A stretch of DNA of 47,797 bases, taken from the UHGV virus genome UHGV-0368429; one strand, given 5' to 3'. Below, piece after piece: positions 24,142-47,126 of this stretch (positions are counted from its first letter, which is position 1; every line of letters starts with the position of its first letter). Source of the DNA: a virus. Both the position numbers and the translations under genes were made by a program. Below the pieces are notes generated by a model that saw only the letters and a program-made list of their open reading frames with translations, did no database searches and was not told where the DNA came from.

Positions 24142-24166
24142 AAAGGCTGCTTAACGCAGCCTTTTT
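24141..24166. terminator. Bidirectional rho-independent terminator (umuC and convergent small ORF)
   Basis: AAAA-GGCTGC-TTAAC-GCAGCC-TTTTT; A-run on one side, T-run on the other. Confidence 0.7.
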
Positions 24167-24172
24167 AGTTAA

Positions 24173-24322
24173 TTAAGCAGCTTTTTTCTCGCTGCATTTG
24201 CAATGAGGGATAACAAAAACTTTCGCCTTTTTAGGGCGGATGATTTTACCATCCTTCATTACATAGGGCGTGAAGGTTACTTCACACGAATTCCCACATT
24301 TTGGACAATAGCCAGTTTTCAT
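24173..24322 (-). CDS. Unlisted small ORF (49 aa): zinc-ribbon-like protein, putatively SOS-regulated
   Basis: Translated by hand (below the 60-aa listing cutoff): MKTGYCPKCGNSCEVTFTPYVMKDGKIIRPKKAKVFVIPHCKCSEKKAA*; CPKC...HCKC; GGAG about 7 nt before ATG; LexA box 28 bp upstream; terminator downstream. Confidence 0.5.
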   Translation of the reverse strand: MKTGYCPKCGNSCEVTFTPYVMKDGKIIRPKKAKVFVIPHCKCSEKKAA

Positions 24323-24349
24323 GTGAGATCTCCTATGTAAATGTACAGC

Positions 24350-24365
24350 CTGTAAATCTAAACAG
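24350..24365. promoter_or_regulatory. LexA (SOS) box upstream of the small zinc-ribbon ORF
   Basis: CTGTAAATCTAAACAG = CTGT-N8-ACAG with AT-rich spacer. Confidence 0.65.
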
Positions 24366-24476
24366 ATTGCACCTTGTTAGGAGAACCACTATACTTTTAG
24401 CCGTCAAGCATTTTGTGTAGCGGTAGATTTCTCCATACACACCGAGTTATGCGTCAACATAGCTCGCCCCCTAAGA

Positions 24477-24500
24477 AGCCCTGCGTCAACAGGGCTTTTT
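24477..24500. terminator. Hairpin terminator just past the ImmA-like gene
   Basis: GCCCTG-CGTCAA-CAGGGC followed by TTTTTT on the plus strand, preceded by A-rich sequence. Confidence 0.5.
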
Positions 24501-24983
24501 TCAATAAAATTCAAAGCAAAGCTGTGCTGTTTGATAGCCCAATTTATCGAGCATCGTTTCTGCGAAAAGATCCGCCTGCCATTCAGAATCTTCATTTTGT
24601 TCCGGCATGGCATTCGCAAAGTGTAAGGCTGGCTTATGTTGTAGTAGCAAGTGCCCGAGCTCATGGAATATAACAAATAACGCTGATCGTTCACCGCCAC
24701 ATGCCATTTCATAGATATGGTTTGGAACCCTGATAGTCAGTTTGTCAGGTTCACAGTGTCCAATCGTTAGACCCAGCGTTTCCTGAAACCATTCGTCATC
24801 ATCCATTGGATCGAGGACAATATTCCATTGAGATAATGTTTCCAGCGCTACGTCAAATCTGCGCGGTCTACGCCGGTATTTATACTTACTAGTAAATCCG
24901 AGTGCAAAGCAAGCATTTACAGCTATCGCTTTAATTTCCATTTCACTCAGAGGACGAACACGTGTACCGCGCATTAAATGCAT
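24501..24983 (-). CDS. ImmA/IrrE-family zinc metallopeptidase (COG2856-like)
   Basis: 160 aa with HEXXH motif (FHELGHLLLQH); immediately downstream of an XRE HTH gene in the same orientation; AT-rich. Confidence 0.7.
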   Translation of the reverse strand: MHLMRGTRVRPLSEMEIKAIAVNACFALGFTSKYKYRRRPRRFDVALETLSQWNIVLDPMDDDEWFQETLGLTIGHCEPDKLTIRVPNHIYEMACGGERSALFVIFHELGHLLLQHKPALHFANAMPEQNEDSEWQADLFAETMLDKLGYQTAQLCFEFY

Positions 24984-25000
24984 AACAGTTTCCTAAGCAG

Positions 25001-25360
25001 TTATTTTTTGTTGATTTCTGCAAGTAATTCTGCAAATTTTTTTAATTCTTCATGGGTGAATTCCGATTTTGCAAAACCAGCAACAAGCATTTGTTGTTGC
25101 TTTGGTAAACCTTCAATAGGTACCAATTCATTCGCGATAGAAGCTAAAACATCGAGATCATCAATGTAATAACCTTGCGCTGCAAAAAGTTCATTGATTG
25201 CCGTTACCCATTTCTCTGGTATTTTTTTAGTCCCTGTTTCGAGCCCGCTTAGAAAAGCAGGTGTTGTTCCTAAAGCCTTTGCCATTGTAAGCAAAGTATA
25301 ACCAGTATCGATCCGAGCTTTCCTTACGGCCTTTCCGAAATCAGTAAGAGCCATAGTCAT
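25001..25360 (-). CDS. XRE-family helix-turn-helix transcriptional regulator
   Basis: 119 aa; N-terminal HTH (…FGKAVRKARIDTGYTLLTMAKALGTTPAFLSGLETG…); paired with the ImmA-like gene. Confidence 0.7.
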   Translation of the reverse strand: MTMALTDFGKAVRKARIDTGYTLLTMAKALGTTPAFLSGLETGTKKIPEKWVTAINELFAAQGYYIDDLDVLASIANELVPIEGLPKQQQMLVAGFAKSEFTHEELKKFAELLAEINKK

Positions 25361-25459
25361 ATCCTCAGTGCTTTCATTGTGGCTTACGCCAGATGTTCTA
25401 AATATACTCTAACCATAAAAAAAGTAAACTCATCAAGAAAAATAAATTAACCAAAAAGG

Positions 25460-26131
25460 TTAAGTTATTATTTCTATTAGATTTTTACCTTGATTTCTGG
25501 CGTTTCCAACCGCGCGTGTAACAGCGTGCCAGATAAACTTGTCGGCAGGCACTGCGCCGTCGGCTGCTATCTCTTCAGCTTCTTTCCCGCCTATATCCTG
25601 ACGTATCCACTCGCGAGCCGCTTCCGGTGACAGAACCAGTGGCCGGCGATCGTGAATATCGACCAGACCTTTATCAGCTGCAGATGTCACGATGAGAAAA
25701 CCTTCAGCTTCGTCTCCACGCTCAAATGGTGTGCTGCCGATAGCCGCCATAAATATTGGCTGGCCGTCGGCCCGGTGAATGAAGTAGGGCTGTTTCTTGT
25801 CTGCTTCCTTCTTCCATTCGAACCAGCCATCCGCAAAGCAGATCGCCCGGCCATGTTGCCAGAGAGGCTTGAACATTCGGCTGGTGGCCGCCGTCTCGAC
25901 GCGTGCGTTAATCAGTGGCGGTTTATCCCACCACTCGGGCGCGTAAGACCACAGGACTGGATCAAGATGCAGCTGCTCGTTGCGTTCGCTCAGGAGCAGC
26001 ACCTTGGTACCGGGCGAGACGTTGTACCGGCCTATAGGTTCCGGGTCATACGCAATGTCACGATCGGCTTCATCGGCCAAGTATGCCAGATATTCTTCAC
26101 GGGTTTGGGCTTGTGCAAAACGTCCACACAC
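25460..26131 (-). CDS. yedK: SOS-response-associated peptidase (SRAP; YedK/HMCES family abasic-site processing protein)
   Basis: 223 aa starting MCGRFAQAQTREEYLAYLADEADRDIAYDPEPIGRYNVSPGTKVLLLSERNEQLHLDPVLWSYAPEWWDKPPLINARVETAATSRMFKP..., matching E. coli YedK with the catalytic Cys2. Confidence 0.85.
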   Translation of the reverse strand: MCGRFAQAQTREEYLAYLADEADRDIAYDPEPIGRYNVSPGTKVLLLSERNEQLHLDPVLWSYAPEWWDKPPLINARVETAATSRMFKPLWQHGRAICFADGWFEWKKEADKKQPYFIHRADGQPIFMAAIGSTPFERGDEAEGFLIVTSAADKGLVDIHDRRPLVLSPEAAREWIRQDIGGKEAEEIAADGAVPADKFIWHAVTRAVGNARNQGKNLIEIIT

Positions 26132-26311
26132 AGGAACCTCCAGTCAGTAAGACTGAAAGTATAGGGCAGGGAGAAAAAGTAGTGTGCGCTGGTTAAGTCC
26201 TACAAACGGATTCGCGCTGATTATGCTAATGAGGATGAAATGCGTAAAGCGATGCGTTGTGAAACTGGAAGGAGCTACGCAAAGTTGCGACAATGCCAAA
26301 AGAGAAAGCTA

Positions 26312-26335
26312 AACCCGGTAGGGGATCCGGGTTCG
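26312..26335 (-). terminator. Hairpin terminator downstream of dinI
   Basis: Inverted repeat AACCCGG-TAGGGGAT-CCGGGTT; T-containing tract follows on the minus strand. Confidence 0.4.
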
Positions 26336-26356
26336 CTGTGATGACAATATGGAAAT

Positions 26357-26596
26357 TCATTCATTAGTAAGCCACATATCAGACTCTTCAAACATATCCT
26401 CCAGCATACGGTTCAACTTTTCACGGTCACTTTTGCTGGCATCACTATTCAATCCGTTAGCCTGCATAGGTTTCACCTTCACTTCAGCATCAGGGAATAT
26501 GCTATGCACTCGCCTCGTCAGCTCAGCCAAAATAATTTCTCTGGCGCCATCCAAGCCCTGGACATTTCGCTTATCGTAAACCAACTCAACAAACAT
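26357..26596 (-). CDS. dinI: DinI-family DNA-damage-inducible protein
   Basis: 79 aa; ...GAREIILAELTRRVHSIFPDAEVKV...EESDMWLTNE follows the E. coli DinI pattern; LexA box 42 bp upstream. Confidence 0.8.
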   Translation of the reverse strand: MFVELVYDKRNVQGLDGAREIILAELTRRVHSIFPDAEVKVKPMQANGLNSDASKSDREKLNRMLEDMFEESDMWLTNE

Positions 26597-26637
26597 AACA
26601 GTCTCCTTAATCTCTGTGAGAGGAAGCTATATTTTTA

Positions 26638-26653
26638 CTGTAAATATATACAG
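26638..26653. promoter_or_regulatory. LexA (SOS) box upstream of dinI
   Basis: CTGTAAATATATACAG = CTGT-N8-ACAG. Confidence 0.8.
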
Positions 26654-26767
26654 TGTCAAGCGAGTGATACGATCTACACGATGGGATTTTTCGTCCGGTT
26701 GAACAGAAATTACCGGTAGTTATTCCCCAGTTATTCCCCAATATTTCCCCGTAAGAAAACTACCAAT

Positions 26768-26797
26768 AAAAAAACCAGCCATAAGAGGCTGGTTTTC
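26768..26797 (-). terminator. Rho-independent terminator adjacent to attP (would follow the reconstituted tRNA in a lysogen; tI/sib-like position)
   Basis: AACCAGCC-ATAAGA-GGCTGGTT flanked by an A-run (plus) and T-run (minus); 10 bp from the CCA end of the tRNA fragment. Confidence 0.6.
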
Positions 26798-26807
26798 AAT
26801 GTATTTT

Positions 26808-26853
26808 TGGTCGGCACGAGAGGATTTGAACCTCCGACCCCCGACACCCCATG
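26808..26853 (-). other. attP core: 3'-terminal 46 nt of a tRNA-Pro-like gene (partial tRNA, not intact)
   Basis: Reverse complement CATGGGGTGTCGGGGGTCGGAGGTTCAAATCCTCTCGTGCCGACCA has T-arm, acceptor 3' strand and CCA and matches the 3' part of E. coli proL as recalled; the 5' half is absent; int is adjacent. Confidence 0.65.
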
Positions 26854-26904
26854 TCACTGCGTTAAAGCCGCTGCAACCCTTGTAAATACTGGTGCTACGG
26901 CATG

Positions 26905-26940
26905 TTTGACTGTATATGCAAACAGTGCATTTTTTGCAAA
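26905..26940 (-). promoter_or_regulatory. LexA-box-containing promoter-like element between int and attP, oriented toward attP
   Basis: CTGTATATGCAAACAG (26910..26925); on the minus strand TTGCAA-17-TATACA flanks and overlaps it. Confidence 0.4.
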
Positions 26941-26989
26941 ATCCGCACTATATACATCAATGAGTTACGGGTAGGTTTTTCCCCATACA

Positions 26990-28183
26990 TCACCCGGCTT
27001 TAAAGACAATTTCAGCATGAGGAACTTCTACCCATTCCACATGGTTCTGGGTATAAACTTTTGTCGATTTTGCATCACTATGGGCCATCCTTGCCTGCGG
27101 ATCGATACCTTGTCTTTCGAAAATATGAGCCGCCAGCGCTCTAATCTCGTGGAAAGTTGGCCTTTCTTTGATAGGTAATTCTGCCGCTACACCTATCCGG
27201 TCCCGCAGCTCTGAAAATGCCCTGCTCAAATAATCAGGGGCCACCTGTGTTGGGTGGTTAACTTCCTTGCTTATCGGATTGCTTCTCTTTTCCAGAAGCC
27301 GGTGAATAACATAAGGACTGGCCACATTGTCTCTGCTGTTGTCGATGATCTCTTTCAGGGCCCTGCCGATCGGAATAGCGACGTGTGAAGCCTCTTTGTG
27401 CTGCACTTTTTGCCGATGAATGTAAAGCGTTCCGAATATGCCAGCCTCCTCCTGATCGAACCATACACAGCCGCAAACCCCTTCTTGAGGTTCCTTGATC
27501 GAGTACCGGATCCGGGAAACTTCCAGGCGCGCTTGCGTAGTTTGTATGGCAAGGTCCATTGCAGTCTTCAGCCAAGGTTCAGCAGCTGCATGTATGGCCA
27601 GGAACTGTTCCAAAGTAAGTCGCCGGCGGACCTTTTTATCGACACGCCGCATTTTTTTCCGTGTTGCAGGGTTATCCATCATTAGCGATTCATCAACAGC
27701 ATAAGAGAATAGCTTTTTCAGGAAGCTAACTTTTCGGTTCTGAACATTGGCCGACGATTCAGAATGGTAATTTCGTATGTAGGCATTTACGTGCTCAAGC
27801 TCAATATCGCATGCGGGTATGTTATTAAAAAATTCTTTAACCCTGATGGCATCATTATTCCAATCGTCAAGTGTGCTTTTAGACGGCTGCTCATCTTTGA
27901 TTGCTCTCTCCATAATGCGATCAACATGTTCAGAAAACGGGTGGGCTTCACCATTCAGCCCTCCCGATTCCCGAATTAATGAATCTATCGATGGTGTATT
28001 TTCAGGGCGCATCCTCAGGTTATATTCTCGGGCGATGGCGATAGCCATTACTCGATCCGAACCGAGAGTTTTCTTTTTCCCAGTTATAAGCGTGAACTTA
28101 TACACGCCACGATCTTTATCAAAAAAAAGATAATCAGGAAGGTGGCGGTATTCTTTTTTTCGTGGCCTTGCTGCCATGGTCAA
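26990..28183 (-). CDS. int: Tyrosine integrase
   Basis: 397 aa next to attP on the same strand; lambda-type position; C-terminal region typical of tyrosine recombinases. Confidence 0.85.
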   Translation of the reverse strand: MTMAARPRKKEYRHLPDYLFFDKDRGVYKFTLITGKKKTLGSDRVMAIAIAREYNLRMRPENTPSIDSLIRESGGLNGEAHPFSEHVDRIMERAIKDEQPSKSTLDDWNNDAIRVKEFFNNIPACDIELEHVNAYIRNYHSESSANVQNRKVSFLKKLFSYAVDESLMMDNPATRKKMRRVDKKVRRRLTLEQFLAIHAAAEPWLKTAMDLAIQTTQARLEVSRIRYSIKEPQEGVCGCVWFDQEEAGIFGTLYIHRQKVQHKEASHVAIPIGRALKEIIDNSRDNVASPYVIHRLLEKRSNPISKEVNHPTQVAPDYLSRAFSELRDRIGVAAELPIKERPTFHEIRALAAHIFERQGIDPQARMAHSDAKSTKVYTQNHVEWVEVPHAEIVFKAG

Positions 28184-35853: not shown

Positions 35854-36033
35854 ATGCGCGAAGTTAACCGAAGGTTCAAAGACCACAGAGGGATCCCCGT
35901 TCGGGTTATCCGGTGGGAGCCAGAGACTCAACGAGTTATCTACCTGCGGGATGGTTATAACCACGAATGTTTCAGCCCGCTCGAACAATTCAAGCGCAAG
36001 TTTACAGAGTTAAAGGACGACCATGAGCACTAA
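35854..36033 (+). CDS. Unlisted small ORF (59 aa), hypothetical
   Basis: Hand-translated MREVNRRFKDHRGIPVRVIRWEPETQRVIYLRDGYNHECFSPLEQFKRKFTELKDDHEH*; AGGAAGG upstream; overlaps the O-like gene start by 11 nt. Confidence 0.3.
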   Translation: MREVNRRFKDHRGIPVRVIRWEPETQRVIYLRDGYNHECFSPLEQFKRKFTELKDDHEH

Positions 36034-36886
36034 ATTAACGGGTTACGTTTGGGACGCTTGTGCCGCTTCTGGCATGAAGCTGTCCAGCGTTGCCATCATG
36101 GCGCGTCTGGCAGACTTCAGCAGTGATGAAGGGGTTAGCTGGCCTTCCATCGCTACCATCGCGCGCCAGATTGGTGCCGGTGAGAGCACGGTTCGAACAG
36201 CCATATCTCAACTGGAAAAAGACGGGTGGTTAACCCGCCAGCAGCGCCGTAAAGGCAACCGCAATGCATCGAACGTTTACCAGCTCAATGTTGCGAAATT
36301 ACAGGCTGCTGCCTTTTCTCACCTGTCAGATTCTGACGCATCAAAATCTGATGCCTCAAAAACCGACGCGTCAAAATCTGAGGCATCAAAAAACGATGAA
36401 AAAGACGGTTTTCACCCGTCAGAATCTGGGGGGGATCCGTCAGTAAATACAACTACTGATCCATCAGATAAAAAACATTCTTGTCCGGTTGCTGCGCAAC
36501 CCGACCCTGTGGTGGTTATCACCGATCAGGCGAAGCAGGTTTTATCACATCTGAACAAGACCACCGGATCACGGTATCAGGTCTGCAAATCGTCCTTGGA
36601 AAACATCCGGGCTCGCCTGGCTGACGGGTTTACGCCCGATGAGCTGCTGTTGGTGGTGGATTACAGCGTCGAGAAGTGGGGCGAAGATCTGAAAATGGCC
36701 GAATATCTGCGCCCAACAACGTTGTTTTTGCCATCTAAATTCCCAGGTTACCTGCAATCCGCAAATAAGTGGAACGCAGCAGGACGCCCAGAACGACAGT
36801 ACTGGGGCTCAATTCGTAAGCATGATCCGATGAAATTTGGTGGGCCAGATAAAGCCATCCCAGCTGGCTTCAGGGGAGCGAAATGA
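36023..36886 (+). CDS. Replication initiator (lambda O-like replisome organiser)
   Basis: 287 aa; N-terminal winged-helix-like region; central repetitive linker encoded by the iterons; occupies the lambda O position. Confidence 0.65.
   Translation: MSTKLTGYVWDACAASGMKLSSVAIMARLADFSSDEGVSWPSIATIARQIGAGESTVRTAISQLEKDGWLTRQQRRKGNRNASNVYQLNVAKLQAAAFSHLSDSDASKSDASKTDASKSEASKNDEKDGFHPSESGGDPSVNTTTDPSDKKHSCPVAAQPDPVVVITDQAKQVLSHLNKTTGSRYQVCKSSLENIRARLADGFTPDELLLVVDYSVEKWGEDLKMAEYLRPTTLFLPSKFPGYLQSANKWNAAGRPERQYWGSIRKHDPMKFGGPDKAIPAGFRGAK
36335..36400 (+). repeat. Four 15-bp direct repeats (candidate ori iterons) inside the O-like gene
   Basis: TCAAAA[TA]C[TC]GA-type units starting at 36341, 36356, 36371 and 36386 with exact 15-bp period; flanked by palindrome GTCAGATTCTGAC; encode (DASKS)n. 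Confidence 0.5.
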
Positions 36887-37782
36887 TGAGCATGAATGCT
36901 GATAACAAATATTGCCGCGCGCTGGCTGAACTGCGCTCAAAGCCAGCGCATGAATTGAAAGAAGTTGGCGATCAGTGGCGCACTCCGGATTTGTTGTTTT
37001 GGGGCATCAATTCGATATTTGGGCCGATGGTTCTGGATCTGTTTGCAGACGATAGCAATACTAAATGCCCTGCATGGTACACCGCCGAAGATAACGCGCT
37101 GACGCAGGACTGGTCAGAGCGTCTGGCAGAACTCGGTGGCGCCGCGTTTGCAAATCCGCCATATAGCCGTTCTCAGTACCATGAAAAGCAGGCCATCACT
37201 GGCATGACCCACATCATGAATCACACAATGGCGATGCGTGATAAAGGTGGTCGTTACATATACCTCGTGAAGTCAGCCACAAGTGAAACATGGTGGCCGG
37301 AAGATGCCGATCACATCATGTTTATTCGTGGTCGTATTGGGTTCGATCTTCCTATTTGGTTTGTTCCCGCTGACGAGAAGCAGCAACCCACCAGCGCATT
37401 TTTTGCCGGGGCAATCGCTGTCTTCGACAAAACCTGGCGTGGTGAAAGCTTCAGCTATATCAATCGCACCGAACTGGAAGAAAAAGGGCGTGCAGCATTG
37501 TCATTGGCTCAATTCGCCGCGGCAAAAATGGCCCTTTCGTCGGTGCCGGAAAAAGCAATGCCTACTCCCATTGCAACGGCTGATGCAGAGTCGCGCATCT
37601 GGCCGCTGGAGGTTGGTCTGGTATTCAATCAGGTCAAGGGGGCGGATTCTCTGGGCGTGAACCAACAGAACAAGTTGAAGGCCAACATCAACCAACTCTG
37701 GCTGGAGCGTGTGCCTACCAGCGAAATAATTAGCGTGGCCGGTGGTCTGGTTAGCAGCATGCAGGGGGCCGTCAATGCGTGA
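36883..37782 (+). CDS. DNA N6-adenine methyltransferase (phage Dam-like)
   Basis: 299 aa with NPPY motif (…AAFANPPYSRSQ…); start overlaps the O-like stop (ATGA). Confidence 0.75.
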   Translation: MMSMNADNKYCRALAELRSKPAHELKEVGDQWRTPDLLFWGINSIFGPMVLDLFADDSNTKCPAWYTAEDNALTQDWSERLAELGGAAFANPPYSRSQYHEKQAITGMTHIMNHTMAMRDKGGRYIYLVKSATSETWWPEDADHIMFIRGRIGFDLPIWFVPADEKQQPTSAFFAGAIAVFDKTWRGESFSYINRTELEEKGRAALSLAQFAAAKMALSSVPEKAMPTPIATADAESRIWPLEVGLVFNQVKGADSLGVNQQNKLKANINQLWLERVPTSEIISVAGGLVSSMQGAVNA

Positions 37783-39712
37783 AATCATCGTTGATAACTT
37801 TGCCGGTGGTGGCGGCGCGAGTACCGGCATTGAACTGGCCATCGGGCGTAGCGTGGATATCGCTATCAACCACGACGAAAACGCTATTGCGATGCATAAG
37901 ACGAATCACCCGGACACGCTGCATTATTGCGAGTCGGTGTTTGACGTTGACCCAAGCGCAGCCACCAGCGGTAAACCTGTCGGTCTGGCCTGGTTTAGCC
38001 CTGACTGTCGCCACTTTTCCAAAGCGAAGGGCGCTAAGCCGGTTAAGAAAGAGATTCGCGGGCTGGCGTGGATTGTCCTGCGCTGGGCGCTGGCAGTACG
38101 TCCCCGCGTCATGATGCTGGAGAACGTCGAAGAATTTAAGACATGGGGACCGCTGCTGGATGAAGAATTACGCCCGGATCCTGAGCGTGCAGGTGAAACA
38201 TTCGAGGCATTTGTCGGCATGTTGTCGACTGGTATCGCGGCGAATCACCCAGCACTGGCTGAGGTTTGTGAATTTCTTGCCATTGAGCCGCACGGCCAGC
38301 AGGCGCAACAGCTGATCGCCGGGCTTGGCTATGAGGTCGATTATCGTGAGCTGCGCGCTTGTGACTACGGCGCGCCGACGATCAGAAAGCGTTTCTTCAT
38401 GGTCATGCGCTGTGACGGCCGCAAGATTCATTGGCCTGAAGCGACTCATGGGGATCCAAAATCACTGGAAGTACAAAGCGGCAAGCTGGCGCCATGGCGT
38501 ACCGCGGCGGAGTGCATTGACTGGAATATCCCGGCCCGGTCCATCTTCGACCGCAAAAAGCCGCTGGCGGAAAATACGCTCAAACGTATCGCACGCGGCA
38601 TCCAGCGCTTTGTTATCGAAAGCGCATCACCTTTCATCGTGAAGTGTAACCACACCACGACGAAAGGAGGTTATGACTGTTTCCGCGGGCAATCGTTGTT
38701 AGAGCCATTGCAGACCATCACTAAAAAGCATGGCTACGCGCTGGCCGTACCGCATCTTACTAAATTCCGCACCGGGGCCACCGGGCAGCCAGTGACCGAG
38801 CCAGTTCCAACTGTCACCGCTGGTACGTCGGCGCGCCCGGGCGGGAATGGGCATGCGCTTGGCGTAGTTGAGGCCGCCCTGACACCGTTCCTGGCTGGCA
38901 ATGGCGGCAGTGAGTACCAGGCAAAGCCGCGCCCACTGGATAAACCCGCTCATACAATCCTCAAGCAGTCCCGCGCGTGCGTGGTTGCGCCGGTCATCGC
39001 CCGCCAGTTTGGCGCCAGTGTTGGGCATAGGGCTGACGAACCTAGCGCAACGATTACTGCAGGTGGTGGCGGTAAGTCGCAGCTGGTAACTCCAACACTG
39101 ATCCAGATGGGGTACGGCGAACGCCCAGGGCAAGAACCGCGTGTTCTTCAACTGAATAACCCGCTCGGCACGGTCACTGCTGGTGGTAATAAGTTTGCAA
39201 CGGTGAGCGCGTTCCTGGCGAAGCACTATGGTGGGAATTACACGGGGCCGGGTGTTGGTATGGATGAGCCTGCCCACTCAGTCACTACTGTTGATCATCA
39301 CGCGGTAGTTGCGTCGCACCTGGTGAAGCTGCGCGGAACCTGCCGCGACGGTCAGACCATGGATACACCTATGCCGACGATTACCGCTGGTGGCCAGCAT
39401 GTTGGTGAGGTCCGGACATTCCTCGAAACCTACTGCGGTGATAGCGAGGATGAATGGCTGGTGACGATCGAGGGGGTTAAGTACCAGATCGTCGATATCG
39501 GAATGCGCATGCTGCAACCGCATGAGCTTTATAAGGCACAGGGCTTCCCTGACGGCTACGTTATCGATCAGGACTATCGCGGCAATCGTTACGCCAAAGA
39601 CAAGCAGGTAGCGCGCTGCGGTAACGCAGTACCGCCGCCGTTCGCTCGTGCGCTGGTAGAAGCAAATCTTCCTGAATTATGTGCAAATCAAAAGGCGGGT
39701 GCAGCCGCCTGA
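37775..39712 (+). CDS. DNA cytosine-5 methyltransferase with extended repeat-containing variable region (candidate multispecific)
   Basis: From ATG 37775: FAGGGG (motif I), SPDC (motif IV), ENV (motif VI), RKRFFMV (motif VIII), C-terminal GNAVPPPFARAL (motif X); between VIII and X five repeats of the T-[IV]-T-A-G-G type. Confidence 0.8.
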   Translation: MREIIVDNFAGGGGASTGIELAIGRSVDIAINHDENAIAMHKTNHPDTLHYCESVFDVDPSAATSGKPVGLAWFSPDCRHFSKAKGAKPVKKEIRGLAWIVLRWALAVRPRVMMLENVEEFKTWGPLLDEELRPDPERAGETFEAFVGMLSTGIAANHPALAEVCEFLAIEPHGQQAQQLIAGLGYEVDYRELRACDYGAPTIRKRFFMVMRCDGRKIHWPEATHGDPKSLEVQSGKLAPWRTAAECIDWNIPARSIFDRKKPLAENTLKRIARGIQRFVIESASPFIVKCNHTTTKGGYDCFRGQSLLEPLQTITKKHGYALAVPHLTKFRTGATGQPVTEPVPTVTAGTSARPGGNGHALGVVEAALTPFLAGNGGSEYQAKPRPLDKPAHTILKQSRACVVAPVIARQFGASVGHRADEPSATITAGGGGKSQLVTPTLIQMGYGERPGQEPRVLQLNNPLGTVTAGGNKFATVSAFLAKHYGGNYTGPGVGMDEPAHSVTTVDHHAVVASHLVKLRGTCRDGQTMDTPMPTITAGGQHVGEVRTFLETYCGDSEDEWLVTIEGVKYQIVDIGMRMLQPHELYKAQGFPDGYVIDQDYRGNRYAKDKQVARCGNAVPPPFARALVEANLPELCANQKAGAAA

Positions 39713-39726
39713 TATGGAGAAATAGC

Positions 39727-40419
39727 ATGAATCAGTTAACCGCAAAGGGTGTTGTGACAATGTCCAGCCGTGAAATTGCCAGGCTGGTGCAGAGCAAACA
39801 TGGTGATGTGAAGCGCTCAGCTGAGCGCCTTGCATCTGCTGGTATTTTAACCGCGCCGTTGGCGCACACCCCCTACACACACCCGCAAAACGGGCAAACA
39901 TACGAGGAGTATTGGTTCAACAAACGTGATTCTCTGGTGATCGTCGCCCGGCTGTCGCCAGAATTTACCGCCGCTGTTGTCGATCGCTGGCAAGAGCTGG
40001 AGAACAGTCAGGCCGTAAGTGTCCCGCAAACATTGCCGGAGGCATTACGTCTCGCCGCGGATCTGGCCGAGCAGAGAGAACAACTGGCCCAGCAGTTAGC
40101 CGCTGCCGCGCCGAAAGTTGAGTTTGTCGATCGGTATTGTACTGCTAAAGGCTCAATGTCTTTCCGCCAGGTGGCAAAGCTGTTGCAGGCCAAAGAGACC
40201 GATTTCCGCTTGTTCCTCATTGAGAGCGGCATTTTGTACCGGCTCAGTGGAGTGCTGACACCGCGGCACCAGCACATTGCTGCCGGGCGGTTTGAAGTGA
40301 AAACTGGTACCACGAGCGAAACAAACTACGCCTTTAGCCAGGCACGTTTTACACCCAAAGGCATCGAGTGGATCGGCGGCCTGTGGACGGCACACATCGC
40401 TAAGGGGCATGCCGCGTGA
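39727..40419 (+). CDS. Antirepressor (Rha / KilA-C-type)
   Basis: From ATG 39727 (GGAG SD): MNQLTAKGVVTMSSREIARLVQSKHGDVKRSAERL... resembles phage Rha N-terminal DNA-binding domains. Confidence 0.6.
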   Translation: MNQLTAKGVVTMSSREIARLVQSKHGDVKRSAERLASAGILTAPLAHTPYTHPQNGQTYEEYWFNKRDSLVIVARLSPEFTAAVVDRWQELENSQAVSVPQTLPEALRLAADLAEQREQLAQQLAAAAPKVEFVDRYCTAKGSMSFRQVAKLLQAKETDFRLFLIESGILYRLSGVLTPRHQHIAAGRFEVKTGTTSETNYAFSQARFTPKGIEWIGGLWTAHIAKGHAA

Positions 40420-41477
40420 GAGGACTGTTTACAGCCGAGACTGTTCCGCGCCTTGGCCTGGTAGTGTTAAAGCCGGGCAGCGAACTGATGTCTCTGTTTC
40501 AACAGGGGCGTGTGCTGGTGGAGCCTCAGCCAAAAAGCATGGCTGGGCTTCCGTCGGGCCTCGTCCCTGATGCCAGGCAGCCGCTGGCAGAAGATAAGTC
40601 CCTCGAGGAATTCTTCACCGACGAGAGAGTAATCCGTGCTGCAGGCGGTTTGACCGCGTTGGAATCCTGGTTAGAACGTAACGTGAAGGAATGCCAGTAC
40701 CCGCACACTGATTATCACCATCATGAGCTGGTAACGATGCGACATCCCCCTGGATCAATGTTGCTCTGTTGGCATTGCGATAACCAGCTGCGCGAGCAAA
40801 CCACCGCGGCGCTGGCAGAACTGGCCCGGCGTAATCTCATTAACTGGCTGATCAGTTCCATCCTGTCTTCGCTTGGCTACAACAACGAGCGTGAACTATC
40901 CCTCGGTGAATTGTGCTGGTGGGCTGTTTATTCAGGCATTGCTGATGCAATCACGGAAAGGATGGCCCAGCTTGCGCTTCGATTACCGGATGAGCCGTTT
41001 TTATCCGTATATCGAGAAAGTGACATTGTGCCGATGCCCCCGGCAAAAAGCATTTTGCAGAAGAAGGTCACCCCTGCGGTCACGGCTGCGAAATTAAATC
41101 ATGGAGCAAATCAGGAAGTAGCATATGAACTGCCAAAGGTTCTGGCTCTGCATGCGGATCCTGAATCCCCTGAATCATTCATGTTGCGCCCAAAACACCG
41201 CAGGTGGGTGAATGAGGAATATACCCGGTGGGTTAAAACCCAGCCCTGTGAAGCTTGCCGGCGGCCAGCGGATGATCCACACCATGTCATTGGTCACGGC
41301 ATGGGCGGTACCGCCACTAAAGCCCACGATTTGTTTGTGATCCCTCTGTGCAGAGAGTGTCATGACAAATTACATGCTGATGTTGCAGCGTTCGAGAAAA
41401 AGCACGGTACCCAGCTGGAGCTGCTATTCCGGTTTATGAATCGAGCGCTGGCGATCGGCGTAATAACAAAAGCGTAA
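40416..41477 (+). CDS. Phage protein with C-terminal Cys/His cluster (DUF968-like, tentative)
   Basis: GTG start overlapping upstream TGA; C-terminal ...TQPCEACRRPADDPHHVIGHGMGG...IPLCRECHDKLH... suggests a zinc-binding/HNH-like fold. Confidence 0.45.
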   Translation: MRGLFTAETVPRLGLVVLKPGSELMSLFQQGRVLVEPQPKSMAGLPSGLVPDARQPLAEDKSLEEFFTDERVIRAAGGLTALESWLERNVKECQYPHTDYHHHELVTMRHPPGSMLLCWHCDNQLREQTTAALAELARRNLINWLISSILSSLGYNNERELSLGELCWWAVYSGIADAITERMAQLALRLPDEPFLSVYRESDIVPMPPAKSILQKKVTPAVTAAKLNHGANQEVAYELPKVLALHADPESPESFMLRPKHRRWVNEEYTRWVKTQPCEACRRPADDPHHVIGHGMGGTATKAHDLFVIPLCRECHDKLHADVAAFEKKHGTQLELLFRFMNRALAIGVITKA

Positions 41478-41498
41478 TTGTATGGAGCGCTGAGCATA

Positions 41499-42191
41499 AT
41501 GAATTTACAAGAACTGGAATATACGCGGATTGAACTGCGCCGTGCGCTGGCGGATTTATCAGGATCGACAAAAGGGCAGCTGCAGGCGTTCAGTGAGCAT
41601 CCACCAGCAGATAAGAATAAATACCCCCGGCACCATCCTGAAATCGTCATGGAGGGTGGGGAAGGTTGTGGATCGAAGGTTGTAAAAACTCTGGCCACTC
41701 CGCTTTATGTTCTTGAGACAAGGAGCCGTCGCCGACCTTTACCGCCTATTAAGGATGCGGAGTTCGCTTGTTCAGCATGGCGTCGTTCGGTCAATGGTCT
41801 GGGGGAGCATTTGCAGGCATGGGTGCGGTACTGCTATGGGCATGACCTTGCTTTCCGGTACCAGAGGTTAATGTGCCAGCACGTATGGGAAGAGTTCCAG
41901 CGTCAGCATAGCGGCAAAAAAATCCAGGACCGTGTCACTAAAAAACTGGTTGGGCTTGTCTGGCTGGCGGCGCAAGAAGTTGCTGCCTCGCGTAATAACG
42001 ATACCTATCAGGAGTATGCTGGTGCAGCTCTGGCGCGCATGGTCAGCGTTGAGCGTTCCACCTGGCTTAGAGTGTATTCAGGCCACTGGGCGGCTTTCAA
42101 AGCGTCGTTTGCTGAAATGGACAGCCAGGCACTAAGCGAAATTTTGTCACGGTACGAAGGGTACCAAGAACTGAAAGTGGCGGAAATGTGA
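41499..42191 (+). CDS. Q: Late-gene antiterminator Q (tentative family assignment)
   Basis: About 230 aa, last gene before a promoter-terminator pair and the lysis region (lambda Q position); ATG 41499 with GGAG upstream. Confidence 0.6.
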   Translation: MNLQELEYTRIELRRALADLSGSTKGQLQAFSEHPPADKNKYPRHHPEIVMEGGEGCGSKVVKTLATPLYVLETRSRRRPLPPIKDAEFACSAWRRSVNGLGEHLQAWVRYCYGHDLAFRYQRLMCQHVWEEFQRQHSGKKIQDRVTKKLVGLVWLAAQEVAASRNNDTYQEYAGAALARMVSVERSTWLRVYSGHWAAFKASFAEMDSQALSEILSRYEGYQELKVAEM

Positions 42192-42389: not shown

Positions 42390-42581
42390 ATGCAAAATCA
42401 ACCTTATATGACAGAAGAAGCAAAGGCGGTTTTTAACGAACTCAGCGCTTCACCAGCGACAGCTGGGGAAATTGCACAGAATACGCACCTAAGCCGAGAG
42501 AAATGCCAGCTCATCCTGACGCAGCTGGTTATGGCGGGGTTATCAGATTACCAGTTTGGATGTTACAAACGCCTCCACTGA
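42390..42581 (+). CDS. Hypothetical small late protein
   Basis: 63-aa ORF with purine-rich SD-like sequence upstream. Confidence 0.45.
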   Translation: MQNQPYMTEEAKAVFNELSASPATAGEIAQNTHLSREKCQLILTQLVMAGLSDYQFGCYKRLH

Positions 42582-42731: not shown

Positions 42732-43784
42732 ATGAAAAATACTGTAAATATAAACAGTGTTGAGCTTGTCAACGCTGACTGCCTGCAATACCTCGCAACC
42801 CTCCCAGATAACACCATCGACCTTATTGTTACGGATCCGCCTTATTTTAAGGTGAAGCCGAACGGCTGGGATAATCAGTGGAATGGTGACGCCGACTATC
42901 TTCGCTGGCTTGATATGTGTCTTGCCCAGTTCTGGCGAGTGCTTAAGCCTGCCGGCAGCCTGTATTTGTTTTCAGGTCACCGACTTGCATCCCATATTGA
43001 GATCATGATGCGTGAACGCTTCAACGTCATGAACCACATTATCTGGGCGAAGCCATCAGGGCGCTGGAACGGGTGTAATAAAGAAAGCCTGCGCTCTTAC
43101 TTTCCCGCGACGGAACGCATCCTTTTCGCTGAGCATTATCAGGGGCCATATAAGCCGAAAAGCGACGGATTTGCTGAGAAAAGCAACGAGGTCAAACAGC
43201 ACGTCATGGCTCCGTTAATCACCTACTTTCGGGAAGCACGAGCCGAACTGGGGGTCACGTCCAGGCAAATAGCTGACGCCACCGGAAAGAAAAATATGGC
43301 GTCTCACTGGTTCGGTGCCAGTCAGTGGCAACTACCGAACGAGCAGGATTACGAAAAGCTGCAGGAATTGTTCACTCAGATCGCCATTGAGAAGCACCGC
43401 GCCTCTGAACTCAAAGCACCGCATCACCAGCTGGTGGCCACATGGCATTCGTTGAACCGGAAATACCTTGATCTGCTGGAAGAGTACAAATCTCTTCGGC
43501 GGCATTTCTCTGTGACAGTAGCCGTGCCCTATACAGACGTCTGGACACATAAACCCGTCCAGTTCTATCCAGGCAAACACCCGTGCGAAAAGCCCGCTGA
43601 TATGTTGCGGCAAATCATCAACGCCAGCAGCAGGCCCGGCGATGTGGTAGCTGATTTCTTTATGGGCTCGGGATCAACTGTTAAAGCAGCCATTGAACTG
43701 GGCCGCCAGGCTATCGGCGTAGAACTGGAAGAGGAACGTTTCAACCAGACGGTAAGTGAGGTAAGGCAGCTGGCAGGGGAATAA
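42732..43784 (+). CDS. DNA methyltransferase, DPPY class (N6-adenine or N4-cytosine)
   Basis: 350 aa; motif order ...IDLIVTDPPYF... (catalytic) before ...FFMGSGST... (SAM-binding) is beta-class. Confidence 0.8.
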   Translation: MKNTVNINSVELVNADCLQYLATLPDNTIDLIVTDPPYFKVKPNGWDNQWNGDADYLRWLDMCLAQFWRVLKPAGSLYLFSGHRLASHIEIMMRERFNVMNHIIWAKPSGRWNGCNKESLRSYFPATERILFAEHYQGPYKPKSDGFAEKSNEVKQHVMAPLITYFREARAELGVTSRQIADATGKKNMASHWFGASQWQLPNEQDYEKLQELFTQIAIEKHRASELKAPHHQLVATWHSLNRKYLDLLEEYKSLRRHFSVTVAVPYTDVWTHKPVQFYPGKHPCEKPADMLRQIINASSRPGDVVADFFMGSGSTVKAAIELGRQAIGVELEEERFNQTVSEVRQLAGE

Positions 43785-43854: not shown

Positions 43855-44070
43855 ATGTATCGAATGGAAAAAATCACGACGGGTATTGCATACGGCGCAT
43901 CGGGAGGGGGGACCGGATACTGGTTGCTTCAGCTCCTCGATAAAGTCTCCCCATCTCAATGGGCGGCTATTGGTGTGCTCGGTAGCCTCATGTTTGGTTT
44001 GCTGACGTGGTTAACGAGTCTGTACTTCCAAATCAAAGCGGATCGCCGCAAAGCTGCGCGGGGTGAATGA
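43855..44070 (+). CDS. S: Pinholin (phage 21 S-type) with dual-start motif
   Basis: [45 protein letters not shown]...[11 protein letters not shown] closely matches S21 as recalled. Confidence 0.9.
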
Positions 44071-44606
44071 TGTCGAACAAAGCAAAGCTCAGCGCAGCAG
44101 TGCTGGCGCTAATCGCGTCAGGGGCATCTGCGCCACTCATTTTCGACCAGTTCATCAGCGAGAAAGAAGGAAACGCGCTGGTGGCCGTTGTTGATCCTGG
44201 CGGGGTCTGGTCTCTATGTCACGGCGTGACCGTTATCGATGGCAGGCGTGTTGTTAAAGGCATGACGGCCACTGAGGAACAATGCCGGAAGGTTAACGCT
44301 ATTGAACGCGATAAGGCATTAGCCTGGGTTGATCGCAATATCAAAGTGCCTCTGACAGAGCCACAGAAGGTGGGTATCGCATCCTTCTGCCCGTATAACA
44401 TCGGCCCCGGTAAATGCTTCCCATCGACCTTCTATAAGCGTATCAACGCAGGTGACCGCATCGGTGCATGCGAGGCAATCCGCTGGTGGATTAAAGATGG
44501 TGGCCGTGATTGTCGTCTAACCAAAGGCCAGAAGAATGGCTGCTATGGTCAGGTTGAGCGACGGGACCAGGAAAGCGCGCTGGCGTGCTGGGGGTTAGAC
44601 CAATGA
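44067..44606 (+). CDS. R: SAR endolysin (phage 21 R-type lysozyme)
   Basis: 179 aa; N-terminal signal-anchor-release domain followed by lysozyme core (E...D...T: …[25 protein letters not shown]…); overlaps holin stop and Rz start. Confidence 0.85.
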
Positions 44607-45118
44607 AAATTAATCCGGGTCTTTTAGGCGTTGTTGTTATTGCCGTCCTTTCGGTCGCTCTCGTTAAGAGTTGCTCCAACGCCAGTAGTCTTCAGAGCGA
44701 TATCGACGTTCTGCGAAGTGACAACTCTATGCAGGGGCAGGTGATCGCCACCCAGGCATTCAACTTCAATCGATTCAATCAGGTTGCAGAACATGCCAAC
44801 AGGCTTAACTCCCTGATCGACACTAGCACCGAAGAAACCGTAATCGAATACCGGGAGATACTCCGCCGTGAAAAAACCTGTGATCTGCCTGTTCCTGCTG
44901 ACATTGCTGGTGGGCTGCTCGAATACGCGTACCGTTTACGTTCCAGCGCAATGCACGCCGATACCGACGGAACTGACGCAGCCGATGATAGTACCGCTGC
45001 CGCCCGTTCAATAACGTACTGCCAGGCTGTGCTCTGGATTAAGCCGTTGCTGGCCGTAATAGAGAAGGGCAACAATAACTTCGCTGGCATTCGTCAAGTA
45101 GAACAGGAGCGACAATAG
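44603..45118 (+). CDS. Rz: i-spanin Rz
   Basis: From ATG 44603: N-terminal TM helix ([21 protein letters not shown]) then charged helical region; ATGA overlap with the endolysin stop. Confidence 0.8.
   Translation: MKINPGLLGVVVIAVLSVALVKSCSNASSLQSDIDVLRSDNSMQGQVIATQAFNFNRFNQVAEHANRLNSLIDTSTEETVIEYREILRREKTCDLPVPADIAGGLLEYAYRLRSSAMHADTDGTDAADDSTAAARSITYCQAVLWIKPLLAVIEKGNNNFAGIRQVEQERQ
44868..45014 (+). CDS. Rz1: o-spanin Rz1, embedded in Rz in the +1 frame (unlisted, 48 aa)
   Basis: Hand-translated from GTG 44868: (M)KKPVICLFLLTLLVGCSNTRTVYVPAQCTPIPTELTQPMIVPLPPVQ*; lipobox LVGC and Pro-rich C-terminus. Confidence 0.7.
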   Translation: MKKPVICLFLLTLLVGCSNTRTVYVPAQCTPIPTELTQPMIVPLPPVQ

Positions 45119-45274
45119 GTATGGGCAAATCCTAACGTGAAAATCTGCAGCAGCATTTCCATTATGTTTGGCTGTAAATTATCTATCACCATAGGTTTCT
45201 TGCGTCATCAGGTAATAGACCGACCTCATAAAAAGAGGTAAATTATTACTTTACGTTGCGCTCAGGTAGACGAG

Positions 45275-46063
45275 ATGGAAGAACGTCATCACAGCTATAT
45301 CCTTAAAACTATTGAAGAAATAGGAAGGGGTGGGTTCGGTTACGTTGAAAAAATTGAACTTTTCAATGTTAACGGTCACAAATGCGGTGACTACGCCAAA
45401 AAGATTTTGGCGCAGGATCATGGGCTTAGCAAAGAGGACTTCAAAAGAAGATTCAAACGGGAAGTGGATTATCAGGCTAGGTGTACGCACTCGAATATAG
45501 CGCCTATATATCTACACAATCTTCAGGTTGATAGTCCTTGGTTTGTTATGGATCTCGCTGAAAGTGATTTAAGTACAGATTTAGCCTCAGGCACGCTCGA
45601 TAATGCAAGCAAAATGCATATTGCAGAAATGATCCTTTCAGGGGTACGTTTCATGCATACAGAGAAAACTAATGATCCAGGACGTAAGCCAGTATATTTA
45701 CACCGTGATTTAAAGCCATCTAATATTCTTCGTTTTAAAGATGGAGTTTACAAAATTTCCGATTTTGGTTTAGTAAAAAATGCAGGAAAAGAAAGACCAG
45801 AATCTGAGCTTTTAACAAGAGTCGCTACAGCCATGGGAACGCTCAAATACATGGCTCCTGAGATAACAACAGCTGGGCATTACTCAGAGCAAACTGACAT
45901 TTTTGCTCTCGGAGTAGTTATTGATGATATGGGGTTTGATAACGTTAATGGTATTAGACAGTTAATCGATAAATGCACCGCCTGGAGAGCTGCAAGCCGA
46001 TACAAATCGGTTGATGATATGATGCAGGAACTGGCTGATATAAAAATAAGGAATGGGCTATGA
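45275..46063 (+). CDS. Hanks-type Ser/Thr protein kinase (AT-rich moron)
   Basis: 262 aa with GRGGFGYV (P-loop), YAKK (Lys), HRDLKPSN (catalytic loop), SDFG, APE. Confidence 0.85.
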   Translation: MEERHHSYILKTIEEIGRGGFGYVEKIELFNVNGHKCGDYAKKILAQDHGLSKEDFKRRFKREVDYQARCTHSNIAPIYLHNLQVDSPWFVMDLAESDLSTDLASGTLDNASKMHIAEMILSGVRFMHTEKTNDPGRKPVYLHRDLKPSNILRFKDGVYKISDFGLVKNAGKERPESELLTRVATAMGTLKYMAPEITTAGHYSEQTDIFALGVVIDDMGFDNVNGIRQLIDKCTAWRAASRYKSVDDMMQELADIKIRNGL

Positions 46064-46809
46064 TTACCCTACTTTCAAGTGGTCTTTTCTCTTACGCTAA
46101 AAGTTCTTCGCGTACTAATCAGGATTCTATTCTTGCTCCACAGTGCATCGATAATGGCTATTTGATTGCTGTCGCTGATGGCGTTGGCTCGTACTTGGGC
46201 GCAGAACACGCTTCACAAACAGCAATTAAATATTTAGCGAACCTAATCAATGCTTCTTCTATCCAAGATCTTGATAGCCTCTTCGCCACAATAAAAGAAA
46301 AGATTTCTGCGTTATCTGACGCTGATGAATCCTATTTAGAAGCTGCAACGACGTTGACGTTTGCATATGTAAACAATCAAGGTTTGTACATTGGTCATGT
46401 TGGTGATTGTCGTTTGTATATTAAAAAAGATAATAAACTCAAACAACTAACGAAAGATCATACCCAACATCAAAAACTGTTGGATCAGAAGATTTTCAAT
46501 AAAAAAGAACTTAAGGATATGGGGGGGAAAAACACCCTAACAACTGCGATTTCTAAAGTTATCCCATTGGAATTTCAACAAACGTTTATTCCTGCGTCTG
46601 AAGTTTTCGAAGACAACGAAGAGGCCACTCTCTACATTCTTTCAGATGGAGCACACCACTTCTGGGATAAGAGACCAAGATTCTCAATCACTACTTTGAG
46701 CAATCCAAACTGTTTTGCAGCTAGCTTGCATAAACGAATTATTCGTAATGGGCCTATAGATGATTTTTCTTTGGTTGTAGCCAAGTTCAAGCGCAGCAGT
46801 GTTAACTAA
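46060..46809 (+). CDS. PP2C-family Ser/Thr protein phosphatase (AT-rich moron, coupled to the kinase)
   Basis: 249 aa; metal-binding motifs VADGVGS, HVGDCRLY, ILSDGAHH; ATGA overlap with the kinase stop. Confidence 0.75.
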   Translation: MITLLSSGLFSYAKSSSRTNQDSILAPQCIDNGYLIAVADGVGSYLGAEHASQTAIKYLANLINASSIQDLDSLFATIKEKISALSDADESYLEAATTLTFAYVNNQGLYIGHVGDCRLYIKKDNKLKQLTKDHTQHQKLLDQKIFNKKELKDMGGKNTLTTAISKVIPLEFQQTFIPASEVFEDNEEATLYILSDGAHHFWDKRPRFSITTLSNPNCFAASLHKRIIRNGPIDDFSLVVAKFKRSSVN

Positions 46810-46924
46810 TGGTGTGGTTGAACTTGTAAGACTTACGGCTCAATAAAGGTTCGGGCATACGTAGTTCGTGTTGAACATAAGGGCTGAAATTCTGATTACA
46901 TAGTTGAACAAACTCCATACCAGG

Positions 46925-46952
46925 GCCACCAGCAATCACTGGTGGTTTTTTT
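46925..46952 (+). terminator. Rho-independent terminator after the kinase/phosphatase pair
   Basis: CCACCAG-CAATCA-CTGGTGG followed by eight T. Confidence 0.8.
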
Positions 46953-47126
46953 TGCGTATCGCACGCGCACATCAAGGAAAGTCTTTCAGTTGTGAGCCCG
47001 GGCAAACCGTTAACTTTCGGCGGTTTCGCCTTGCGATAGGCGCAATATGGGTTCAACAAAGAGCGCGTTGATGCTGTCCCGCAGAGCAGGGGCCGCGGGT
47101 CCTTTCCGGCTATCTGACATGTTACG

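Follow-up and report, generated by a model that had tools for sequence, protein, structure and literature searches.

A phi80-like phage cytosine-C5 DNA methyltransferase carrying seven tandem units that may act as target-recognition modules

The stretch of viral DNA analysed here, UHGV virus genome UHGV-0368429 (47,797 nucleotides; hereafter the window), represents a phi80-like lambdoid temperate siphovirus of Escherichia coli, which shares about 90% identity with phage phi80 over its structural half. Our subject is a gene in its early, "nin-like" region, at 37775..39712, whose product is a cytosine-C5 DNA methyltransferase with a tandem array of repeat units between its conserved motifs VIII and IX. 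The open reading frame (ORF) spans 37742..39712 and offers two possible starts, GTG at 37742 and ATG at 37775; the former is ruled out, as every homolog starts at the ATG position (M/V-REIIVDNF), and the protein numbering used throughout refers to the 645 amino acids (aa) read from the ATG at 37775. The gene and the motifs of its catalytic core are arranged as follows.

37775..39712, + strand: cytosine-C5 DNA methyltransferase gene, 645 aa (PF00145, AlphaFold2 core, Foldseek, near-identical homologs)
37799..37813, + strand: motif I, FAGGG, aa 9-13, S-adenosylmethionine (AdoMet) binding; G11, G13 and G14 invariant in 104 homologs
37997..38020, + strand: motif IV, SPDCRHFS, aa 75-82, with the catalytic Cys78; P76, C78 and S82 invariant in 104 homologs
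38120..38128, + strand: motif VI, ENV, aa 116-118; invariant in 104 homologs
38378..38398, + strand: motif VIII, TIRKRFF, aa 202-208; T202, R204 and R206 invariant in 104 homologs
39506..39550, + strand: motif IX, RMLQPHELYKAQGFP, aa 578-592
39620..39631, + strand: motif X, GNAV, aa 616-619

That the gene encodes a C5 methyltransferase, as the original prediction from the bare sequence held, is borne out by domain matches, motifs and structure. PF00145 matches the protein in three stretches (Pfam, 74 bits against a cut-off of 22, E 1.9e-20), and motifs I (FxGxG), VI (ENV), VIII (RxR), IX and X follow one another in canonical order at aa 9, 116, 204, 578 and 616; the narrower NCBIfam model TIGR00675 gives 53 bits, under its cut-off of 100.65. 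More than 100 diverse homologs all have Cys78, Glu116, Arg204, Arg206 and the glycines of motif I. Motif IV departs from the canon, with Asp77 directly before Cys78 where Pro is expected and the Pro one position earlier, an Asp shared by at least 90% of these homologs. AlphaFold2, run on the protein with a 104-sequence alignment, gave a predicted local distance difference test score (pLDDT) above 90 for aa 1-285 and 560-635, which make up the catalytic core. When this model was compared with the PDB by Foldseek, 49 of the 50 matches listed were C5 methyltransferases and the remaining one was the C5-carboxymethyltransferase 8yf3; the top match was 3g7u, the CP-933R prophage enzyme (E 2e-11), with DNMT1/MET1, M.HaeIII and M.HhaI also listed, and the comparison recovered the catalytic fold only and nothing on the array. 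The gap between motifs VI and VIII (aa 126-185, 38150-38330) holds about 45 extra residues and is the most variable part of the protein in close homologs (entropy 0.77); some homologs (P0067, P0072 and P0015) carry a further insert of 21-24 aa between these two motifs.

The array itself occupies aa 306-560, about 255 aa, and consists of seven contiguous units of 32-48 aa, each following the consensus (D/E)xPxxT[IV]T, loop, hydrophobic strand, Gly-rich loop. Five repeats had been proposed for the variable region, and all five exist (aa 346, 426, 466, 502 and 535) and lie between motifs VIII and IX; two further units, marked by LQTITKK and AHTILKQ, had been overlooked. The segment from motif VIII to motif X is also longer than the roughly 300 aa first estimated, at about 400 aa, some 365 of which separate motif VIII from motif IX. 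The units are given below with their independent E-values (i-E) from a repeat hidden Markov model (HMM).

38690..38785, + strand: unit 1, aa 306-337, QSLLEPLQTITKKHGYALAVPHLTKFRTGATG, with LQTITKK at aa 311-317; i-E 1.5e-11
38786..38929, + strand: unit 2, aa 338-385, PTVTAGT, with a long loop; i-E 5.3e-8
38930..39025, + strand: unit 3, aa 386-417, with AHTILKQ at aa 391-397; i-E 3e-9
39026..39145, + strand: unit 4, aa 418-457, ATITAGGGG ... IQMGYGERPG; i-E 2.5e-12
39146..39253, + strand: unit 5, aa 458-493, GTVTAGG ... AKHYGGNYTG; i-E 3.8e-14
39254..39352, + strand: unit 6, aa 494-526, EPAHSVTTVDHHAVVASHLVKLRGTCRDG; i-E 3.9e-15
39353..39454, + strand: unit 7, aa 527-560, PTITAGGQHVGEVRTFLETYCG; i-E 9.2e-10

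This HMM, with 33 positions, refined on 270 family members (consensus QPLDEPLPTVTAGNHHALVAAFLAKYYGGGRDG), matches seven of seven units, with i-E between 5e-8 and 4e-15. Seven instances of the pattern P..[TS][IVL][TL] are present in the protein (aa 311, 343, 391, 423, 463, 499 and 532), whereas 20,000 shuffles of its sequence gave 0.12 on average and never more than 3; the strict form T[IV]TAG[GT] is present four times against 0.004 expected. The Gly-rich loops, which run from the hydrophobic strand of one unit to the PxxT[IV]T strand of the next, are unit-specific (KFRTGATG, RQFGASVG, MGYGERPG, KHYGGNYTG, KLRGTCRDG), and a half-unit, WLVTIEG, follows unit 7 ahead of motif IX. In a DNA repeat search only the PTITAGG cores were alike, at about 70%, so the repeats are old and have been preserved through selection on the protein sequence, and this low likeness among units rules out that they arose by recent DNA slippage. 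Most family members carry a full terminal unit, PLxTxTTKDRxGLVTVxG, before motif IX, where the clade of this enzyme has GDSEDEWLVTIEG at aa 561-577 (39454-39505). Some close homologs have a 17-aa insert (e.g., TLAVEDYDEERAQQVLE) within unit 7. Pfam has no match in the array region, the PHROG match for the protein is PHROG 23072 ("DNA methyltransferase"), and no domain other than a recognition domain matched the repeats in Pfam, PHROG or a unit profile run against the PDB.

Comparison of homologs indicates how the array has changed over time. The gene is 98% identical to genes of phages Flotzy and Eeyore and of 12 complete E. coli genomes; at least 8,000 close sequences are present in a clustered database, and 2,589 representatives clustered at 50% identity match with E below 1e-30. 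According to the repeat HMM, the 120 closest homologs (78-99% identical; from Escherichia, Salmonella, Klebsiella, Enterobacter, Citrobacter and Kluyvera) have 6, 7, 8 or 9 units, and their length tracks unit number (r = 0.96; 605-633, 643-665, 679-695 and 695 aa, respectively), while 150 diverse representatives from the clustering at 50% identity have between 1 and 12. Homologs that are 85-97% identical differ by clean, in-register gaps or insertions of one unit, with the rest of the protein kept. One (P0026, 609 aa) has a 35-aa in-register gap, with one unit length gone at units 2/3, and another (P0079) lacks 34 aa at units 3/4; in P0040 (605 aa), P0067 and P0072 the absence of 39 aa fuses units 4 and 5, a fusion that occurs in homologs of 605-629 aa. 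Homologs of 679-695 aa, P0002 and P0036 (680-692 aa) among them, carry insertions of 32-36 aa inside unit 6, with at least two different modules found at the identical site. Within the close clade, units 1-6 with their loops have entropies of 0.13-0.31 against 0.23 for the catalytic N-domain, unit 4 having the lowest value of all units (0.13); because these units are conserved like the catalytic N-domain, against 0.77 in the motif VI-VIII insert, the array is not a decaying linker.

Among the 150 diverse representatives, the set of module types differs between proteins and is non-redundant: a given loop-signature class appears in 20-83 of these representatives, at most two of which have it twice in one protein, a pattern that fits non-redundant module functions. 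Blocks 4-5-6-7 and 1-2 often recur together in distant homologs, and unit order is colinear with that of the present enzyme in 78 of the 150, both according to a noisy classification of units; these data indicate recurrent blocks with some reordering and fall short of proving shuffling. Averaged over distant homologs, conservation is somewhat lower in the modules than in the core, a difference that is not decisive. Taken as sequence evidence, the comparison supports the view that the units act as modules in evolution. The variable region also has homologous counterparts in 74 sequenced phages of Pseudomonas, Klebsiella, Pectobacterium, Burkholderia, Ralstonia, Aeromonas, Myxococcus and other hosts, and the annotated genes under these matches are all labelled generically as DNA methylase.

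Multispecific C5 methyltransferases of Bacillus temperate phages offer the natural point of reference, as reviews describe several recognition domains arrayed in one polypeptide, and the title of Gunthert and Reiners (1987) credits M.SPRI with "triple sequence specificity". A Pro-x-x-Thr-[Ile/Val/Leu] core occurs in each of the repeats described here and in the recognition units of M.SPRI, M.Phi3TI, M.Rho11sI, M.H2I and M.HaeIII, and the variable regions of the four Bacillus enzymes hold T[LIV][TSN] cores in small numbers (three in M.SPRI, two in M.Phi3TI, four each in M.Rho11sI and M.H2I). Run on the Bacillus phage enzymes, the unit HMM reaches only 4-7 bits, yet these scores lie above 499-500 of 500 shuffles, and the matches fall in or beside recognition cores (EPAFTVNTIDRHGV, PTITTNKG), some of them register-shifted onto a neighbouring PTLTT core. 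On M.HaeIII, whose sequence was checked against the PDB together with that of M.HhaI, the HMM picks NEPAFTVQASGRQC with a score reached by 6 of 500 shuffles. The best BLASTP segment between the phage protein and M.SPRI pairs unit 6 (498-520, EPAHSVTTVDHHAVVASHLVKLR) with SPR 354-376 (EPAFTVNTIDRHGVAVGEYPKYR) at 43% identity and E 0.009; this part of SPR is its C-terminal recognition unit, and unit 6 is the unit most like it. In a three-unit homolog (P0261) the terminal unit and motifs IX-X are colinear with SPR 354-435 (E 0.006). On this evidence, the unit adjacent to motif IX would correspond in position to the final recognition unit of the Bacillus enzymes, with the remaining units as its paralogs. 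The resemblance to multispecific phage enzymes put forward in the original prediction can therefore be kept for the architecture, for the PxxT core and for the match of unit 6 to M.SPRI, while the likeness of the units to Bacillus recognition domains appears weak, at the level of a motif, with E about 0.01 and without a match in the PDB.

We favor the reading that the C5 protein is multispecific, with at least two unrelated targets, and place its probability at roughly 55%. The reading that several recognition domains share one enzyme is supported by the architecture and by the comparison of homologs, and from these we infer that individual units recognize DNA and that the array as a whole confers several target specificities. 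A number of observations weigh against it. In the literature we found no methylation data and no specificity for this protein or for any family member. The unit HMM finds nothing on M.HhaI, and a profile built from 71 diverse units returned no methyltransferase at E <=10 from all PDB sequences, though a profile this short is without power. The units are more alike among themselves than the Bacillus recognition domains are, and the clade of this enzyme does not have the T-x-T half of the terminal unit that the family carries beside motif IX. The Asp that stands for the canonical Pro ahead of Cys78 may bear on catalysis. AlphaFold2 gives the array no usable structure (pLDDT 35-60), and in the three-unit homolog P0261 units 2-3 still score below 55, values too low in both models for the packing or docking of the units to be stated. 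Finally, the smallest family members retain 2-3 units, and blocks such as 4-5-6-7 recur together; with the missing T-x-T half, this suggests that two or more units may have to act jointly as one functional recognition domain, or that some units may be inactive, so that the specificities could number well below seven.

Much of the same evidence can be arranged differently. The seven units might together form one extended DNA-binding platform of single specificity, directed at a long or degenerate site or at a relaxed context such as a dinucleotide, in which unit number would tune affinity or site length and not the number of targets. We hold this alternative only tentatively, though it deserves some weight: all units are related closely enough for a single 33-position HMM to find every one, the minimal homologs keep two or three, the blocks 4-5-6-7 and 1-2 recur in distant homologs, and all units are strongly conserved in the clade, as one cooperative domain would be. 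Against a platform stands the loss, fusion or insertion of entire units among homologs of 85-97% identity that retain the remainder of the protein, and a range of 1-12 units is hard to square with one fixed fold; in the only characterized relatives, moreover, one T[LIV] unit is one recognition domain, and AlphaFold2 packs the units into no confident single domain. Alternatively, only one or two units near motif IX might read DNA, which would make the enzyme mono- or bispecific, with the others being inactive "pseudo" domains or serving in spacing, oligomerization or protein binding. The enzymes of rho11s and H2, each with four T[LIV] cores, reportedly have fewer known specificities than cores and contain such inactive pseudo-domains, and the low pLDDT of the array is compatible with flexible segments that do not dock. 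However, the conservation of units 1-6, loops included, equals that of the catalytic domain and greatly exceeds that of the motif VI-VIII insert, which argues against decaying or spacer sequence; the PxxT[IV] core is kept in every unit, and signature classes stay non-redundant within a protein. We regard an array in which only one or two units read DNA as distinctly unlikely.

A different kind of doubt concerns the chemistry of the core. The product might be something other than plain 5-methylcytosine, through use of another cofactor as in the cytosine C5-carboxymethyltransferases, or the protein might be a catalytically impaired DNA-binding protein. The SPDC form of motif IV in place of PC, the large inserts, the presence of 8yf3 among the weak structure matches and the TIGR00675 score below cut-off could all be taken in this sense, but the residues of the catalytic apparatus (Cys78, Glu116, Arg204, Arg206 and the motif I glycines) show no variation in over 100 diverse homologs, 8yf3 is no closer to the model than 3g7u, DNMT1, M.HaeIII or M.HhaI, and the ORF list and Pfam place no hypermodification genes next to the methyltransferase gene. 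Altered chemistry thus strikes us as very improbable.

The C5 gene is preceded by a replication gene (36023-36886, a helix-turn-helix plus Phg_2220_C) and a dam gene, and followed by genes for a Rha/Ant antirepressor, a DUF968 protein and the antiterminator Q (41478-42191). All of these neighbors are phage genes, and the ORF list with Pfam shows no nuclease partner among them. Two other methyltransferases are encoded in the window.

36883..37782, + strand: phage Dam-like N6-adenine methyltransferase, NPPY (PF05869, E 8.7e-45; TIGR01712, 206 bits against a cut-off of 97)
42732..43784, + strand: beta-class N6/N4 amino-methyltransferase, DPPY before FMGSG (PF01555, E 2.2e-43, 149 bits against a cut-off of 26.7)

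The total of three methyltransferases given in the original prediction is confirmed by these matches, and the window holds no further ORF of at least 100 aa with the amino-methyltransferase motif [DNS]PP[YFWH]. The Dam stop codon, TGA at 37780-37782, overlaps the C5 gene, which starts at the ATG at 37775, by 8 nucleotides within ATGCGTGA, and judging from this arrangement the two genes are probably translationally coupled. A G-rich stretch lies about 8 nucleotides upstream. In phage Flotzy (PP925827, 6674-8008) the gene upstream of a 98.6%-identical C5 gene is a 445-aa ORF labelled "PAPS reductase"; PHROG 33262, also labelled "PAPS reductase", matches the Dam protein of the window at profile positions 282-493, so what occupies this slot is Dam, either by itself or fused to a PAPS-reductase-like domain. 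The closest solved relatives of the beta-class enzyme are M.RsrI, MboIIA and CcrM, and its target may be the N6 of adenine or the N4 of cytosine. Its gene stands between Q and the holin and lysozyme genes (43855-44606); the late-operon slot between Q and the lysis genes is where lambdoid phages carry morons. Ahead of it lies a 63-aa ORF (42390-42581) that might encode a small regulator. The 353-aa protein encoded at 40416-41477, between the antirepressor and Q, combines DUF968 (E 1e-70) with a weak HNH-nuclease-like match. GC content falls to 0.40-0.41 at 45001-47000 and 0.43-0.47 at 24001-28000, against about 0.53 elsewhere, and these segments may be accessory or recently acquired. ARAGORN found no transfer RNA or transfer-messenger RNA genes in the window, and no Rfam family reached its gathering score there.

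If the enzyme is indeed multispecific, its action can be pictured as follows. It would be an active, orphan, phage-borne C5 methyltransferase with a single core, comprising the AdoMet pocket of motif I, the Cys78 nucleophile, ENV and RxR, which would flip a cytosine and methylate it by way of Cys78. Each module would consist of a hydrophobic strand, a module-specific Gly-rich loop, the (D/E)xPxxT[IV]T strand and a short loop of the AGG type. By analogy with the enzymes of SPR, phi3T, rho11s and H2, the modules would take turns docking beside the cleft of the core, each recognizing a short sequence of its own, and one enzyme would thereby methylate a number of different targets, though probably not as many as seven. 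Given the position of the gene in the early region, with the replication gene on one side and the antiterminator Q on the other, expression would follow induction or infection, and the enzyme would act on phage DNA as it replicates. Progeny would then be protected against several cytosine-sensitive restriction enzymes, with the Dam-like and beta-class enzymes adding adenine or N4 marks. From this picture we further infer the timing of expression and an anti-restriction function, which would amount to an escape from many restriction systems.

The implications reach beyond this phage. Should each module recognize a site of its own, a single small gene would give the phage a defence against many cytosine-sensitive restriction systems together, and the gain and loss of modules would offer temperate phages of Enterobacteriaceae a fast route for following the restriction repertoires of their hosts, with a bearing on host range, horizontal gene transfer and the design of phage therapy. 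Near-identical enzymes that differ by one module provide a ready-made experiment on which module reads which sequence. To our knowledge, the sharing of one catalytic cleft by several recognition domains has never been resolved structurally. Enzymes of this kind could also serve as compact multi-site writers of 5-methylcytosine. The boldest form of the proposal, which we consider unlikely, is that the family is a large, undescribed Proteobacterial class of C5 enzymes whose cassette array of 1-12 modules is shuffled, gained and lost, and that the present enzyme methylates at least five unrelated sequences, beyond any characterized multispecific methyltransferase; the natural one-unit variants would in that case yield a direct module-to-target code for C5 methyltransferases.

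Set beside known systems, the enzyme shares with M.SPRI, M.Phi3TI, M.Rho11sI and M.H2I its nature as a phage-borne orphan C5 enzyme that has a single catalytic core and, between motifs VIII and IX, an expanded region filled by tandem units of about 35-50 aa in which a P/H-x-T-[LIV]-[TSN] core is followed by a loop and a hydrophobic strand; the unit adjacent to motif IX appears homologous by position and weakly by sequence. It differs in that its similarity to M.SPRI is confined to short segments (BLASTP, E 0.009 or weaker), in having SPDC where the Bacillus enzymes have SPCQ in motif IV, and in the roughly 45 aa more between motifs VI and VIII. The Bacillus enzymes have 2-4 units, whereas this one has seven (1-12 in its family) that are more uniform, and its host is a Gram-negative enteric bacterium. 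Membership in the sequence family of the Bacillus enzymes is accordingly not supported, and by sequence the enzyme belongs to a separate subfamily. With M.HaeIII, M.HhaI and 3g7u it shares the catalytic fold and motifs, and in M.HaeIII NEPAFTVQASGRQC has the core of the repeat unit, but these enzymes have a single recognition domain and not a tandem array. The segment M.HhaI 228-257 (RLGIVGKGGQGERIYSTRGIAITLSAYGGG), which we take to hold the two recognition loops of that enzyme, runs through a strand, a GKGGQGER loop, an ITLS strand and an AYGGG loop, the same order of elements as a re-registered module when compared by eye only; we offer this comparison as a lead and not as a test. The C5 genes of the Proteobacterial phages and prophages Flotzy, Eeyore, Kpn_R1, ZF40, F116 and Mx4 belong to the same family and have homologous variable regions; their records carry generic annotation, with none found that describes repeats or specificity, and our literature search found no paper on this enterobacterial C5 methyltransferase family. 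The idea of several recognition domains in one methyltransferase is decades old for Bacillus phages, and the enzymes considered here are apparently a widespread, undescribed Proteobacterial version of it, with an unusually long and evolutionarily plastic array.

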